A stretch of 64,000 nt of DNA, from NCBI GenBank assembly GCA_020720625.1, contig DYOH01000001.1, positions 29,085 through 93,084 on the forward strand, given 5' to 3'. Shown here piece by piece: positions 36,231-55,353 of this stretch (position 1 is the first letter of the stretch; the number at the start of each line of letters is the position of its first letter). This DNA is from Acetofilamentum sp. GTDB taxonomy: Bacteria > Bacteroidota > Bacteroidia > Bacteroidales > DYOH01. The notes under the pieces were generated by a model that was given only the letters and a program-made list of their open reading frames with translations, was not told the DNA's origin and did no database searches. Both the position numbers and the translations under genes were made by a program.

Positions 36231-36612
36231 AAATAGTACCGTTTTAGATAAGCTAATATACAAAATATTCCAGCAAAAATTGTGCAAATAGCAAAATAGA
36301 TTTTTTTGCTTGGTGAGCACATTTCAATTCGAATTTTTGCAAAAGGGGAGACTAAATAATCGCAATTATTTTTTGTATTCAAGGTAAAAATAGCCATGAG
36401 TTATGGTTTGCAGGCTACTGAAAAGCGGCTATAACCAAAAGTTATCAGAGCAAAAATAGCTTGATATACGTATTTATCTGATAAAAATGATACTTAAATA
36501 ACAGATAAAGCTTGCAAATAAGGTGAATTTTGTATATCAATTTTACGTCGATTTGTTAATTATGCCAGAAGCGCCTGTACTTAACCGATGCCAATGTAGT
36601 ATAAAGCGCGTG

Positions 36613-36640
36613 CGTTCTACAAGTGTATATTATGTTAAGT
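36613..36640 (+). other. dif-like XerC/XerD recombination site
   Basis: CGTTCTACAAG-TGTATA-TTATGTTAAGT; the last 17 nt match E. coli dif (TGTATA-TTATGTTAAAT) at 16 of 17; XerC arm divergent; intergenic. Confidence 0.75.
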
Positions 36641-37030
36641 GGAATGAGTAGTAGTATATGTAAAGTCCTGTATTCTAGTTATTTATATTGCTGTTTATAC
36701 TCTCTAATTGCATAAGGAATTTTCACAAAAAAAATGATGTTGTAACGTGGATGCAATGGGGAAGTATATGGTGTTTTGGATAAATATTATCTTTATATTA
36801 CTGATTAACAGATATTTAGGCATATTGCTGTTATTCCAAATAAAAAAAGTAACAAAAAAATTTTATAAGGTTTGTTTACATTGGCTGTATTTCATTTTTT
36901 TTTAATAGAAAATTTATCTGTTTCACAAGCTTTACTTTTTTAGTAAAGTTACATATTGTATTTTATAAAAACAGACGAAATTTCTTTTGCGATACAATCT
37001 AATTGAAAAAAAATGCACAAAAAAATCACA

Positions 37031-37146
37031 GTTTACAATTGTTATTTACAATATTATATACAATTGTATACAAAAAACAGGTCGAAATTATACTGATGTA
37101 TACAATTTTGACTAAAAACTTTTTTGTATCGTGATGTATATTTGTA
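37031..37146. repeat. Palindromic motif cluster A (WWACAWWTGT / TGTATACA)
   Basis: TTACAATTGT 37033, ATACAATTGT 37058 (within perfect palindrome TATACAATTGTATA 37057-37070), TGTATACA 37065 and 37097. Confidence 0.75.
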
Positions 37147-37684
37147 AAATTAGCGGATAGCGTATTTCTCATATAATGAGCGTATTATATTACTTTAAGT
37201 TTATCTTTACATTAGATAATGCAAAATACAACAATACTTGTGTAATGCTAATCTGAAAATCGAGGACGGAATATATAAATAATAGTTTTTAAGTGTATTA
37301 AATAGCATAATGCATATTTTATACCAAAGTAGTAGATATTCTAACGTAATTAGCTTTATAAATCTAGTAATATCAAGCTTAATTATTCTATTATGTTGAA
37401 TTATAGTTAAATAAATGTGAAAGAATATGCGGCTTTTTAATTAGTTTTCATAAGATTGATGGCAACTATATAGAAATAGATGGAATAAACTGCTCCATTA
37501 TTCTAAAAATTCAGTCAATATTTACTACAATTATTAAATGGGATAGGATTGTACAAATTTTTGCCTTAAAATCGCTCTATAGACGTGCTGCAAACAGTAT
37601 ATCGCTATATAATTATACCCTACTTAGGAAATAACAGTTCGAAATTTTTTATAGCCATTTTAGAATTTATCAGAAAATTACTTA

Positions 37685-37810
37685 TGTATACAAAATTAAA
37701 CTCCGACCTGTTACAATTGTATACAAATGTAAACACCTAGGTTAAACAAAATTTGTAAAAAAAAATTACATTCGGATACAATTGTAAACAAAATATTCAT
37801 TACATTTGTG
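37685..37810. repeat. Palindromic motif cluster B, overlapping the HTH-gene promoter
   Basis: TGTATACA 37685; TTACAATTGT-ATACAAATGT-AAACA 37711-37735 (10-bp period); ATACAATTGT-AAACA 37776-37790; TTACATTTGT 37800-37809 contains a TAnnTTTG -7 element. Confidence 0.8.
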
Positions 37811-37813
37811 AAT

Positions 37814-38338
37814 ATGATTCAGGATGTAAACAAGCGGGTTGTCGAAATTCAGGACAGATATCAGCTTACCAGTGCGCAATTCGCTGCCAGGCTTGGTATT
37901 CAGCGTGCTCGACTTTCGCATTTATCTAACGCCCGTAACAATGTTAGTTTGGATTTCCTGCTCACTGTACTTACTAAATTTCCTGATGTAAATGCCGAAT
38001 GGCTCATGCGTGGAAAAGGGTCTATGATTAGAGATACCAACGAAGGTAAATTTGAAAAAACCGCACCAAAAATCCAGGAGCCTGATCGTAAACCTGAAAA
38101 ATCGGAGCCTGTAGAAAAGACCCTAATTAATGAAGATAAAAACCCCCAAGTTAATAAACTTGATCAGAGTATAAACCAAAATAACCGCAATCAAAACCCT
38201 GAGCATAGCGAAGCATCCAATGTAATAAATTCGCAGATGGTTAATAATTTTTTTACTCCCCAAACTAATGGAAAACGAATAATTAACGTTGTATTAGTAT
38301 TTTCGGATAATACTTTTAGACCATTAAATCTCGAATAA
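37814..38338 (+). CDS. XRE/Cro-CI-type helix-turn-helix protein with disordered linker and short C-terminal beta motif
   Basis: SAQFAARLGIQRARLSHL..ARNNVSLD...FPDVNAEWLMRGKGSM; C-terminal RIINVVLVFSDNTF; start at 37814 (ATG) or 37808 (GTG). Confidence 0.88.
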   Translation: MIQDVNKRVVEIQDRYQLTSAQFAARLGIQRARLSHLSNARNNVSLDFLLTVLTKFPDVNAEWLMRGKGSMIRDTNEGKFEKTAPKIQEPDRKPEKSEPVEKTLINEDKNPQVNKLDQSINQNNRNQNPEHSEASNVINSQMVNNFFTPQTNGKRIINVVLVFSDNTFRPLNLE

Positions 38339-38342
38339 TTTC

Positions 38343-38350
38343 TATATTTG
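38343..38350 (+). promoter_or_regulatory. Bacteroidota -7 promoter element for pyrD
   Basis: TATATTTG, 21 nt before the ATG at 38372. Confidence 0.5.
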
Positions 38351-38371: not shown

Positions 38372-39412
38372 ATGTATAGATATTTTATCAGACCTATTTT
38401 ATTCAAATTTCATCCTGAGTTTATTCATGATGTTGTAATTTTCGGATTTCGGTATTTATCGAATTTTCGCTTTATACTTACCATTCTTCGTCGATTTAAT
38501 AAATTTGATAATAGATTATCCAAAGACATTTGGAATATTCGCTTTCAACATCCGGTGGGATTGGCAGCCGGACTTGACAAGAATGCAGAAGCCTTTGAGA
38601 TGTTTGGCGCATTAGGCTTTAGTTTTGTTGAGATAGGCACCATCACGCCTAAATCTCAACCCGGCAATCCTAAACCTCGTCTTTTTAGGCTTCCCAAGGA
38701 TAAGGCCCTTATAAACAGGATGGGATTTAACAATCTGGGTGTTGATTTTGCAATAGCAAAACTTAAAAAGCGCTCGAAAAATGTAATTATTGGTGGAAAT
38801 ATCGGTAAAAACAAGCTCACTCCTAATTCCGATGCTGTAAACGATTACTTGCTTGCTTTTAGAAAGCTGGCACCTTATGTAGATTATGTGGCAATAAATA
38901 TATCGTCGCCAAATACCCCCGGATTACGTGATTTACAGCATAAAGACGAGCTGTATGAACTTTTATCTGCAATTAGTAAAGAGAAGGAGCTTCAATCGCT
39001 AAGTGTTCCTCTACTGGTAAAATTGGCCCCCGATTTGTCAATCGTTCAACTCGATGATGCACTTGATATAATCCAGAAATGTAAGATGGATGGAGTGATA
39101 ATTAGCAACACTACAATTTCGCGCGAAAACATTCCGCATTATGATATGGAGACTGTTAACCAAATTGGTGCAGGCGGTTTAAGCGGTGAGCCAGTTCGCG
39201 AAAAATCGACCATTATGATACGACAGGTATATGAAAAAACCAATGGTAGATTGCCCATTATAGGTGTAGGCGGAATTATGAATCCCCACGATGCTGTAGA
39301 GAAATTAGAAGCAGGCGCTAGTCTTGTGCAACTATATACCGGTTTCATATACGAAGGCCCACAACTAATTAAAGCTATTAATCGATTATTATTATCTCGC
39401 TTTTCAAAATGA
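38372..39412 (+). CDS. pyrD: Quinone-dependent dihydroorotate dehydrogenase (class 2)
   Basis: GLAAGLDKNA, GNPKPRLFRL, INRMGFNN, NISSPNTPGLR, GGLSG, QLYTG. Confidence 0.98.
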   Translation: MYRYFIRPILFKFHPEFIHDVVIFGFRYLSNFRFILTILRRFNKFDNRLSKDIWNIRFQHPVGLAAGLDKNAEAFEMFGALGFSFVEIGTITPKSQPGNPKPRLFRLPKDKALINRMGFNNLGVDFAIAKLKKRSKNVIIGGNIGKNKLTPNSDAVNDYLLAFRKLAPYVDYVAINISSPNTPGLRDLQHKDELYELLSAISKEKELQSLSVPLLVKLAPDLSIVQLDDALDIIQKCKMDGVIISNTTISRENIPHYDMETVNQIGAGGLSGEPVREKSTIMIRQVYEKTNGRLPIIGVGGIMNPHDAVEKLEAGASLVQLYTGFIYEGPQLIKAINRLLLSRFSK

Positions 39413-40680
39413 AAAAATCTTTTGTTATGCTTATGATTATTGTAGTAACCTTATTGGTATTGATTATAGATATATCGTTGTATTTTAAATATTTGCAGTT
39501 GTTCGAGAAATTTAAAGCTTTAAATGCAGGATTTTTTCGTTACCTGTATTGGATTGTTCCTGCAGGCTTTCTTATTTTTATGTATATTATGTTAAGCAAT
39601 CCGGATATTTTAAAACAAGCAAATAGTAAAATATATTGGATAAGTGGTAGTTTTATTATTTTGTATGTTCCAAAGATAATTGCATTGTTTATTGTTTTGC
39701 CCGAATACATTTTAAACCTGATAGGCTATTTTATGCGCGAAAATTCCACAAAGCCGGCAGTAGTAAGTGTAGGTAATACACTTAATCGTATGCAATTTTT
39801 ATCACAGCTCGGATTTCTATCTGCAGGCATACTTTTTGGTTCCTTACTTTGGGGTGCTCTGGTGGGTAAAACCAGTTATACTATAAACAGGATAAAGCTA
39901 AAATACCGCAATTTGCCTAAAAAGTTTAATGGGTTTAAGATTGTTCAAATAAGTGATTTTCATCTGGGAAGTTGGTTGCATACCCAAAATTCGATCGATT
40001 TTTTTACCGGGGTTGTGGCCGAAATTAATGCTTTAAAGCCTGATATTATTGTATTTACAGGCGATTTAGTTAATAATAGAGCAGATGAAGCCACCGTTTG
40101 GGTAGATTATTTAAATAAGCTTGAAGCTAAGGATGGCAAATATTCGGTATTAGGCAATCACGATTATGGAAAGTATGCCCGATGGAATACCGAGGAAGAA
40201 TACAATGCTAATATGCAATTAATGTATGATACCCACAAGAAATTGGGATTCAAGCTTTTAAATAACGCTAATGAAAGCATTACCAAAGATAATGAAACGA
40301 TACACATCATAGGTGTGGAGAATTGGGGAAACCCGCCATTTCCGCAATATGGCGACTATTATAAAGCCATTTCAGCCATTTCGGCCAACGAATTTCATAT
40401 TTTGTTATCTCACGATCCATCGCACTGGGATTCCGAAATCAGGCATTTGAACAGTGCTGCCATGCTTACGCTTAGCGGTCATACCCACGGAATGCAGTTT
40501 GCTCTAAATTTTAATGGAAAAAGCTGGAGCCCGGTTCAGTGGAAGTATAAATTTTGGAGAGGTTTATATTCCGAATCTGAGAAAAATTTGTACGTTAATA
40601 TTGGTTTAGGCAACATTGCTTACCCTGGTAGAGTGGGAGCGCCACCTGAAATTACTTATATTGAATTGGAAACTATGTAA
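39409..40680 (+). CDS. Membrane-anchored metallophosphoesterase (YkuE-like)
   Basis: Four N-terminal TM helices; SDFHLG, TGDLVN, GNHD, SHDP, SGHTHG. Confidence 0.93.
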   Translation: MKKSFVMLMIIVVTLLVLIIDISLYFKYLQLFEKFKALNAGFFRYLYWIVPAGFLIFMYIMLSNPDILKQANSKIYWISGSFIILYVPKIIALFIVLPEYILNLIGYFMRENSTKPAVVSVGNTLNRMQFLSQLGFLSAGILFGSLLWGALVGKTSYTINRIKLKYRNLPKKFNGFKIVQISDFHLGSWLHTQNSIDFFTGVVAEINALKPDIIVFTGDLVNNRADEATVWVDYLNKLEAKDGKYSVLGNHDYGKYARWNTEEEYNANMQLMYDTHKKLGFKLLNNANESITKDNETIHIIGVENWGNPPFPQYGDYYKAISAISANEFHILLSHDPSHWDSEIRHLNSAAMLTLSGHTHGMQFALNFNGKSWSPVQWKYKFWRGLYSESEKNLYVNIGLGNIAYPGRVGAPPEITYIELETM

Positions 40681-55189: not shown

Positions 55190-55262
55190 GACTCGCTAGC
55201 TCAGTAGGTAGAGCACATGCCTTTTAAGCATGGGGTCCTGGGTTCGAATCCCAGGCGGGTCA
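55190..55262 (+). tRNA. tRNA-Lys(TTT)
   Basis: Full cloverleaf: GACTCGC/GCGGGTC acceptor, CATGC-CTTTTAA-GCATG anticodon arm, GGTTCGAATCC T-arm; CCA not encoded. Confidence 0.98.
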
Positions 55263-55280: not shown

Positions 55281-55353
55281 GACTCGCTAGCTCAGTAGGT
55301 AGAGCACATGCCTTTTAAGCATGGGGTCCTGGGTTCGAATCCCAGGCGGGTCA
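55281..55353 (+). tRNA. tRNA-Lys(TTT), identical second copy
   Basis: Exact 73-nt duplicate after an 18-nt spacer. Confidence 0.98.

Follow-up and report, generated by a model that had tools for sequence, protein, structure and literature searches.

We analysed a 64,000-nucleotide (nt) stretch of the genome of Acetofilamentum sp. (GenBank assembly GCA_020720625.1, contig DYOH01000001.1, positions 29,085 to 93,084 of the forward strand), hereafter the window, which lies on a 125-kb contig of a 3.8-Mb draft genome (G000; other genomes, contigs and loci carry G, C and L numbers). The feature studied is an AT-rich intergenic spacer in front of a gene encoding an XRE-type helix-turn-helix (HTH) protein, within which copies of one palindromic motif form two clusters and a dif-like sequence is found. 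An initial annotation had read this locus as a replication-terminus system resembling those of rtp, tus or MatP. Its observations were partly confirmed and its interpretation was partly supported, and the conserved, dif-proximal and predictedly self-binding module of HTH gene and palindromes is of more interest than the dif-like site. The features of the locus, in window coordinates, are as follows.

34989-36230/36320, minus strand: gene for a leucine-rich-repeat (LRR) protein, on the other flank of the spacer
36330..37800, no strand: AT-rich spacer of ~1.5 kb without a convincing open reading frame (ORF), between the LRR-protein gene (minus) and the HTH gene (plus)
36613..36640, plus strand: half dif-like site, with left arm 36613-36623, spacer TGTATA 36624-36629 and XerD-type arm TTATGTTAAGT 36630-36640
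37033..37112, no strand: predicted distal operator set, with TTACAATTGTTA (37033-37044), ATACAATTGTAT (37058-37069) and the weaker TATACAATTTTG (37099-37110)
37685..37811, no strand: predicted proximal operator array, with sites 37711-37722, 37721-37732, 37776-37787 and 37800-37811
37801..37808, plus strand: candidate -7 promoter box TACATTTG, inside the last operator (37800-37811) and 6 nt 5' of the ATG
37814..38338, plus strand: gene for the XRE-type HTH protein, 174 residues (HTH 1-70, disordered linker, C-terminal beta hairpin 159-171)
38372..39412, plus strand: pyrD, dihydroorotate dehydrogenase (Pfam DHO_dh, 6.5e-90), 33 nt 3' of the HTH gene and on the same strand

The motif WWACAWWTGT occurs 14 times in the window against an expectation of 6.35 ± 3.28, a count reached by 3 of 100 shuffles, and 11 of the 14 copies fall within 37033-37809, which bears out the two clusters of one palindromic motif noticed in the initial annotation. 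The shorter core ACAWWTGT has 277 occurrences in G000 and comes together in groups of at least three within 200 bp at one place only, positions 37713-37802 of the window. Two sites of the proximal array overlap (37711-37722 and 37721-37732, 10 bp apart), and the segments 37711-37732 and 37766-37787 are 22-nt double sites in inverted arrangement, 91% complementary to each other; the distal set lies 0.65-0.78 kb further upstream than the proximal array. The last palindrome contains TACATTTG, a candidate -7 box by the Bacteroidota consensus TAnnTTTG. The second cluster thus runs over a putative -7 element, as the earlier statement had it. The full Bacteroidota promoter pattern TTTG-N17-23-TAnnTTTG is absent at the HTH gene and is found 9 times window-wide against 6.8 expected, that is, at chance level. 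The closeness of TACATTTG to the start codon makes the HTH gene a candidate for a leaderless or near-leaderless mRNA.

The spacer itself offered few other features. Its ATG-initiated ORFs are short (26-56 residues), and no conserved small ORF was found between the operator sets in 19 loci. An Rfam scan of the spacer returned no family at gathering score, and a permissive scan gave two chance-level small nucleolar RNA matches (E 0.4); comparison with 50,697 phage records returned zero matches to phage or mobile DNA. Across 21 genomes (G000 plus 20 relatives), meaningful alignments of the spacer were confined to the 126 bp next to the promoter and a 26-nt half site, and the alignment to G001 was limited to the last 126 bp.

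AlphaFold2 modelling of the HTH protein (alignment A1, 20 homologues) gave a five-helix HTH domain at residues 1-70 (predicted local distance difference test, pLDDT, >90 in most blocks), a disordered linker (pLDDT 52-64) and a beta hairpin of strands 159-162 and 168-171 (pLDDT 78-93), in agreement with the disordered linker and short C-terminal beta motif that had been read from the sequence. The top Foldseek matches are all XRE-type repressors (P2 C, P22 c2, 434 repressor, SinR, DdrO and ImmR; template-modelling score on target 0.7-0.8), with root-mean-square deviations of 1.7-2.0 over 64-68 columns for P2 C, P22 c2, 434 and SinR; as modelled, the window protein is an HTH protein of the 434/P22-c2 type. 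Pfam gives it a weak HTH_37 match only, below the cut-off (22 bits vs 27), and the best 120 listed homologues carry PF01381, most of them with PF12844 as well. No family or fold match to Tus, RTP or MatP was found in Pfam or by Foldseek. Both the fold and family profile and a palindromic operator at its own promoter, where binding is predicted, place the protein in the XRE/Cro-CI repressor class. It has no sensor domain. The three-part plan of HTH domain, low-complexity linker of variable length and C-terminal motif I.RIVIFYsD.TF.EY.P is present in 20/20 aligned homologues, and prediction of a homodimer (two copies, alignment A1) scored 0.28 against a mark of 0.42, which weighs neither for nor against a dimer. 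A profile search returned >6,000 relatives; those that carry a name are called only 'helix-turn-helix domain-containing protein' or 'helix-turn-helix transcriptional regulator'; relatives with such generic names come from Ancylomarina, Carboxylicivirga, Marinilabiliaceae, Saprospiraceae and Bacteroidales. We rejected a toxin-antitoxin reading, since matches to the NCBIfam families HigA, HipB and PezA reach 15-18 bits, far under the cut-off, and no conserved toxin-like gene neighbours the HTH gene.

Two variations on the protein plan were also seen. Most homologues (alignment A1; loci L002-L020 and L074-L087) carry an (S/D/N)-L-F motif shortly past the HTH domain, in forms such as QPSLF, QASLF, QGNLF, PDLF and NDLF; its L and F are at least 90% conserved in A1, and the window protein has GKF at this position. 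The motif resembles the beta-clamp-binding pentapeptide QL[SD]LF. In a subgroup formed by L076 (G165), L080 (G204), L087 (G182) and L079 (G218), the linker and hairpin appear from the sequence to be replaced by a helical, heptad-like tail (115-150 residues in total); their palindromes are TTAACAWWTGTTAA (TTAACA-N2-TGTTAA), and their genes lie 9-52 kb from dif.

The gene and its palindromes are found together well beyond the window. The HTH gene is present in 32/40 relatives of the order, as a single match in 24 of those 32. Counting palindromes with at most one mismatch to TTACAWWTGTAA, and taking ±2.5 kb of the start codon as near, we found 55 near the start codon (95 kb) vs 8 in the remaining 266 kb at 19 loci of the order, a 19-fold enrichment, and 46 in the 70 kb near vs 15 in 202 kb at 14 loci of other orders. 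Across the class Bacteroidia, homologues have several TTACA-N2-TGTAA palindromes, over their own promoter and start codon and again 0.35-0.85 kb upstream, with exceptions. In homologue loci one pair usually lies between -14 and -120 and a second between -350 and -840, and distal sets in the latter range occur also in G031, G027, G033, G003, G014, G020, G017, G006, G004 and G034. Proximal and distal pairs being typical across homologue loci, we regard the two clusters as a conserved feature; the layout in which the last palindrome directly precedes the ATG likewise recurs in many homologues. The TTACA-N2-TGTAA operator should be of use for annotation even if the protein proves to be a plain regulator.

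Elsewhere in the genomes the motif is sparse. Strict sites (WTACAWWTGTAW) number 16 in G000, 4 at the locus and 12 elsewhere. A regulon was considered and rejected for G000: 8 of the 12 sites elsewhere lie inside ORFs and 4 precede unrelated genes (by their translations, a glycosidase/beta-lactamase-like protein, a CheA-like kinase, a membrane protein and an ATPase), which form no coherent set. Exact palindromes at the locus, relative to all in the genome, were counted as 3/3 in G031 (complete, 4.9 Mb), 3/4 in G180, 4/10 in G010, 2/4 in G094, 2/7 in G090 and 1/7 in G066. The remaining exact sites are single copies on other contigs or distant from dif, in numbers like those of a reversed-pattern control; in G094, which is also complete, they lie at 0.96 and 2.42 Mb and are not grouped around dif at 2.18 Mb. 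Neither a multi-site cluster away from the HTH gene nor a dispersed Ter- or matS-like set or opposed polar sites was found in the whole of G000 or among the exact sites of ten relatives. The initial annotation had proposed a check for terminus enrichment and polarity of such arrays, and had named occurrence of the motif at this promoter alone as an outcome that would refute it. On this point its reading was not supported: the array occurs at the HTH gene only, and the other sites are scattered singles at control level.

The position of the gene is the second conserved property. Gene and dif were both located in 59 genomes (28 of the home order, 9 of a phylum-wide sample and 22 of a class-wide sample), and in 27/59 the HTH gene shares a contig with the canonical dif at 0-105 kb (median ~18 kb). 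The individual distances are 0, 2.9, 3.1, 4.4, 5.0, 5.3, 7.2, 8.4, 9.2, 13.3, 16.3, 16.8, 16.9, 17.9, 18.6, 21.2, 25.7, 38, 46, 52, 52, 59, 60, 68, 80, 102 and 105 kb, and no same-contig match of orthologue level is further than 105 kb from dif; weak, paralogue-level matches in G028 (335 kb) and G029 (93 kb) were left out of the set. By our own tally from the coordinates, dif is downstream of the HTH gene in 18/27 placed genomes and upstream in 9/27. The other outcome named as refuting, homologues without linkage to dif or the terminus, did not arise, and the two complete genomes agree with the linkage that had been anticipated. With skew terminus and origin taken from sampled skew, G031 has its skew terminus at 0.2-0.5 Mb, its skew origin at ~2.65 Mb, dif at 162,782 and the HTH gene at ~184,000 (21 kb away), and G094 has its skew terminus at 2.1-2.17 Mb, its skew origin at ~0.9 Mb, dif at 2,176,353 and the HTH gene at 2,183,533 (7 kb away); dif is thus at the skew-defined terminus in both.

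Three control genes do not follow dif to the same extent. We compared distances in other orders using two control sets of five genomes each, both containing G094, G066, G090 and G051, with G154 added for rarA and pyrD and G031 for gyrA. The HTH gene lies 7-80 kb from dif in 5/5 genomes of both sets; rarA lies 663 and 876 kb from dif in two genomes and on other contigs in three, pyrD 170 kb in one and on other contigs in four, and gyrA 1.4, 20, 158 and 442 kb, with one on another contig. The genes beside the HTH gene vary by lineage and include pyrD or pyrK-pyrD, ndk with a DHH phosphoesterase and FKBP, an M14 peptidase with an AsnC regulator, and DUF6580; pyrD is a neighbour in 11/20 loci of the order and not in other orders. 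These comparisons support the view that, in the class, the module keeps its place in the dif-proximal region.

Some observations on this region stand apart. G031 has dnaA (C1:145256-146659) in the terminus region as defined by skew, 16 kb from dif and ~2.4 Mb from the origin that skew defines. Genes for gyrA, a Clp-type ATPase and a TPR protein recur beside dif or the HTH gene in G033, G035, G031, G220, G154 and G070, which belong to several families, and may make up a small terminus-proximal gene core of the class.

The dif-like sequence in the window is a different matter. It reads CGTTCTACAAG / TGTATA / TTATGTTAAGT at 36613-36640; the right 17 nt, spacer and XerD-type arm, are exact, and the left arm is not dif-like. 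The XerD arm TTATGTTAAGT equals the right arm of the canonical dif in G000 (C21), G004, G009 and G033, whereas CGTTCTACAAG departs from TTGTyATAyAA and TGTATA from TTwmTA, the corresponding parts of the consensus. Six relatives, genomes of six families, supplied the 28-bp dif sites for that consensus (TTGTyATAyAA-TTwmTA-TTATGTTAArT) and for a weight matrix. The consensus has at least one match in 22/22 genomes and a single match in 20/22, with controls near zero, and is of use for annotation of the class even if the HTH protein is a plain regulator. On the 3.8 Mb of G000 the matrix finds a single strong match at C21:485-512 (TTGTCCGATAATTAATATTATGTTAAGT, 34.8 bits, with training sites at 29.7-39.5 bits); the second and last site over the 14-bit floor is at C21:12459 (16.7 bits), and the window site scores <14 bits. 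The pattern AYAAWWWMTATTATGTTAART likewise has its sole match without mismatch in G000 at C21:492-512. The canonical site on C21 adjoins a gene that reads in translation as thiol-peroxidase-like and a Clp-ATPase gene, and in G033 and G035 dif is likewise flanked by a Clp-ATPase gene, together with gyrA and a TPR gene. GC skew is informative in G000, because most of its 40 largest contigs hold one sign; on the window's contig 88% of the 5-kb bins have a positive value, and the sign is positive on both sides of 36613-36640 without a change there. Since the window site scores low, C21:485-512 is canonical and the skew does not switch, the window site is neither the chromosomal dif nor at the terminus: the XerD arm of the site proposed as dif holds, and its XerC arm, spacer, skew and score do not. 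This corrects the first reading of the window.

The half site is nevertheless not a chance match, given its recurrence. The 15-mer TATATTATGTTAAGT recurs in G001 and G003, the only other genomes of the window's family with the HTH gene; it keeps its orientation there, at a distance of 0.9-1.2 kb upstream of that gene, in DNA that is otherwise unalignable. A 26-nt copy, 96% identical to the window half site, is found ~260 bp away from the dif of G001 that we call canonical, and further copies exist in G000. There, the 17-mer TGTATATTATGTTAAGT has an exact second copy at C40:11840-11856 and five copies with two mismatches, and two additional XerD-arm copies precede the canonical dif on C21 in the same orientation (about 141 and 260; arm positions 136, 260 and 501, all within 500 bp of the contig end), with one more pair on C34. 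The site may be left over from an earlier dif position or a Xer-mediated event in the family; alternatively, it may be an XerD-only binding site. Its distribution is narrow: among 34 loci scanned, a half site near the HTH gene was found only in family f1 and G066, and the idea that a XerD half site accompanies the gene whenever the true dif is distant was dropped as not general, since no exact arm is present at the loci of G034, G020, G017, G154, G090, G051, G180 and G182.

Minor observations concern further copies of this sequence. The C40 copy has a similar left flank (GCGCTTCATAGTG vs GCGTTCTACAAG) and sits in a 42-bp gap between two plus-strand ORFs. A copy of TGTATATTATGTTAAGT with one mismatch (16/17) lies at window positions 39581-39597 in direct orientation, 3 kb downstream of the first; it falls within a metallophosphoesterase ORF, where it reads M-Y-I-M-L-S, and is probably a chance occurrence in AT-rich coding DNA. 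G001 likewise has a pair of XerD arms (C455:3098 and 3361), and in G003 two to three tandem copies of the HTH gene stand ahead of pyrD (C194:2316-3274, L035), with a half dif-like site 0.9 kb upstream.

We propose that the locus is a self-targeting DNA-binding module, adjoined by a half dif site that is not the chromosomal dif. In this model one dimer would bind each palindrome, the occupied site over the -7 box would repress the HTH gene, and the distal and proximal sets would cooperate, probably via looping; we hold dimer binding to these palindromes and repression of the protein's own promoter, with the distal set probably cooperating by looping, to be very probable. Because the sole conserved target is the module's own locus, and because its position is conserved while its neighbours change, we consider that the DNA-protein complex itself would be the functional unit. 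The bound array would then serve as a single-locus, cis-acting landmark of the terminus region, which is the least certain step, and contact with a partner, by recruitment or bridging, would be made through the flexible linker and its conserved C-terminal hairpin or, in some lineages, through the helical tail. Taken as a whole, the proposal that a DNA-protein complex at a single locus, regulating its own gene, marks the terminus region is tentative, and we give it somewhat less than an even chance. Doubtful is the further proposal of a new terminus-marking system of the class Bacteroidia, in which a 434-type HTH protein on a single array near dif would tie the terminus to the divisome or FtsK, the replisome clamp or SMC, through its flexible linker, with the (S/D/N)LF motif of most homologues, and its C-terminal hairpin or helical tail. 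In role such a system would be a counterpart of MatP, ZapT or RTP, with a different fold and a single locus of action.

Several observations weigh against a landmark at the terminus, and many of them favour an ordinary, autoregulated local transcription factor that represses itself and its neighbours (pyrD in the window, and in other genomes pyrK-pyrD or ndk with a DHH phosphoesterase). On this reading its proximity to dif has no part in any action in cis and comes from inherited gene order or gene dosage. We judge this reading a serious contender that still falls short of an even chance, nearly as likely as the landmark. An operator over the promoter is the classical repressor layout, and the fold is that of phage and cell repressors. 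Palindromes stand ahead of pyrK and pyrD in G031, ahead of pyrD in G010 and near ndk in G014, which fits an ordinary local regulator, and neighbours of the HTH gene are often genes of nucleotide metabolism. The family is patchy, occurring in 28/91 sampled genomes of the class (E<=1e-12), which would be odd for a core chromosome function. The palindromes themselves are inconstant: no pattern sites occur at the loci of G005 and G171 and one each at those of G034, G035 and G022, exact palindromes at the locus relative to all in the genome are 0/3 in G027, 0/1 in G009 and 0/1 in G005, and G034 has the exact palindrome nowhere in its genome. The core TACAnnTGTA has also been described as the operator of CopY/BlaI-type repressors in Firmicutes, and binding of the palindromes by the HTH protein is a step that we infer from the co-conservation of the two. 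As to position, gene and dif are on separate contigs in 32/59 genomes, where no distance can be read, and in G000 dif is on another contig, at least 58 kb from the HTH gene. Moreover, rarA, which is 4 kb from the HTH gene in G000, shares the dif contig in 6/31 home-order genomes (21-171 kb), and gyrA, clpC-like and TPR genes recur near dif. A portion of the neighbourhood thus sits near the terminus as one block, rarA, gyrA and clpC-like genes sharing this location in part of the order, and plain conserved gene order accounts for some of the dif linkage. Speaking against a plain regulator, the protein lacks a sensor domain, and its long disordered linker with a conserved short C-terminal motif would be an uncommon build for such a protein; no single target gene recurs from order to order, proximity to dif is kept where pyrD, rarA and gyrA have moved off, and the strict sites of G000 outside the locus lie in ORFs or before unrelated genes.

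A strict fork trap of the Tus or RTP kind, in which bound arrays would stop forks near the terminus, is most improbable. Its appeal lies in a layout like that of rtp beside TerI/TerII, with the gene next to its own sites and probably autoregulated, in the terminus-proximal location, and in the overlapping double sites 10 bp apart (37711-37732), which recall paired dimer sites; yet palindromic sites and the overall dyad symmetry of the array leave no evident polarity, there is one array per genome on one side of dif and up to 105 kb off, its orientation relative to dif is not fixed (18 vs 9, as above), and the protein is unrelated to Tus or RTP. Very unlikely, too, is a mobile-element relic, in which half dif site, ORF-less AT-rich spacer and phage-type repressor were left by an element integrated at dif via Xer recombination. 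A perfect XerD arm with a foreign-looking left arm is what a hybrid att site would look like, extra XerD-arm copies lie near the canonical dif on C21 and in G001, the repressor fold is phage-like, and Bacteroidales microviruses have been proposed to integrate at dif-like sites without an integrase (PMC3091885). Such a relic would account for the half site; it would leave unexplained why the gene is widely inherited and mostly present once: single in 24 of the 32 relatives with a match, the gene is present in 32/40 relatives and several orders with a divergence that tracks kinship, the spacer has no phage DNA match and no element genes, and outside family f1 and G066 no extra half site lies near the gene in the 34 loci scanned.

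Among known systems, rtp with TerI/TerII is closest to the module in layout and ParB/parS, as a single-locus landmark, in idea; for its fold and type of operator the nearest are the repressors of 434, P22 and lambda. The rtp system of B. subtilis shares with the module a small dimeric DNA-binding protein, a gene beside its own sites near the terminus, presumed autoregulation and paired overlapping dimer sites; unlike the 434-type HTH protein with its one array of symmetric sites, RTP is a winged-helix protein with Ter sites on both sides of the terminus. In E. coli, TerB overlaps the promoter of tus in the terminus region, a likeness to the site over the HTH promoter, whereas Ter sites are asymmetric, polar and dispersed and those described here are palindromic and local, with no match to the Tus fold or family. 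MatP is a ribbon-helix-helix protein with 23 dispersed matS sites and so differs from the module in its fold and in lacking a single clustered array. MatP/matS in enterobacteria and ZapT in Caulobacter are described as small sequence-specific proteins tied to the terminus region (PMC7188993, PMC7858052). A DNA-binding domain joined to a tail for protein contacts would be common to them and the HTH protein, for which this plan is read from sequence and model. Of the rtp/tus/MatP-like terminus system originally proposed, then, the linkage to the terminus survives; the fold or family of Tus, RTP or MatP and dispersed or opposed polar sites do not.

The HTH protein resembles the 434, P22 c2 and lambda CI repressors in its fold, in operators that are palindromes built on an ACA..TGT core, in its predicted autoregulation and in a second set of operators, which at a distance of hundreds of bp is suited to looping. 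Unlike theirs, the HTH gene is chromosomal and mostly single-copy in many Bacteroidia, no phage surrounds it, and a CI-type C-terminal domain is replaced by the disordered linker and a 20-residue hairpin. With ParB/parS the module would share the idea of a few binding sites clustered at or beside the protein's own gene, a fixed chromosomal landmark and a complex as the functional unit; ParB/parS is origin-proximal, differs in fold and depends on spreading with CTP and on a ParA partner, and nothing of this kind is seen here. XerD-only binding sites (XDS) are described from the B. subtilis terminus (PMC11894783), and the window sequence 36613-36640 may be comparable in that it keeps the XerD half of dif without the XerC half, with several such half sites in G000. 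Our literature search found no terminus-marking, -organising or -closing protein described for Bacteroidota and no description of the TTACA-N2-TGTAA operator. To our knowledge, Tus, RTP, MatP, ZapT and the XerD sites are each confined to lineages other than Bacteroidota. A conserved gene that is its own sole conserved DNA target, and that stays near dif as its neighbours change, is therefore a concrete and testable candidate for a terminus role, and relatives of the HTH gene are present in genetically tractable groups of the class.

Two further features of the window were recorded. Downstream of the HTH gene, TATATTTG at 38343-38350, 22 nt 5' of the pyrD ATG, fits the -7 consensus; because of this placement, pyrD may have its own promoter rather than be co-transcribed with the HTH gene. 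Two tandem transfer RNA genes lie at 55190-55262 and 55281-55353, separated by 19 nt and with identical Rfam scores (71.6 bits).

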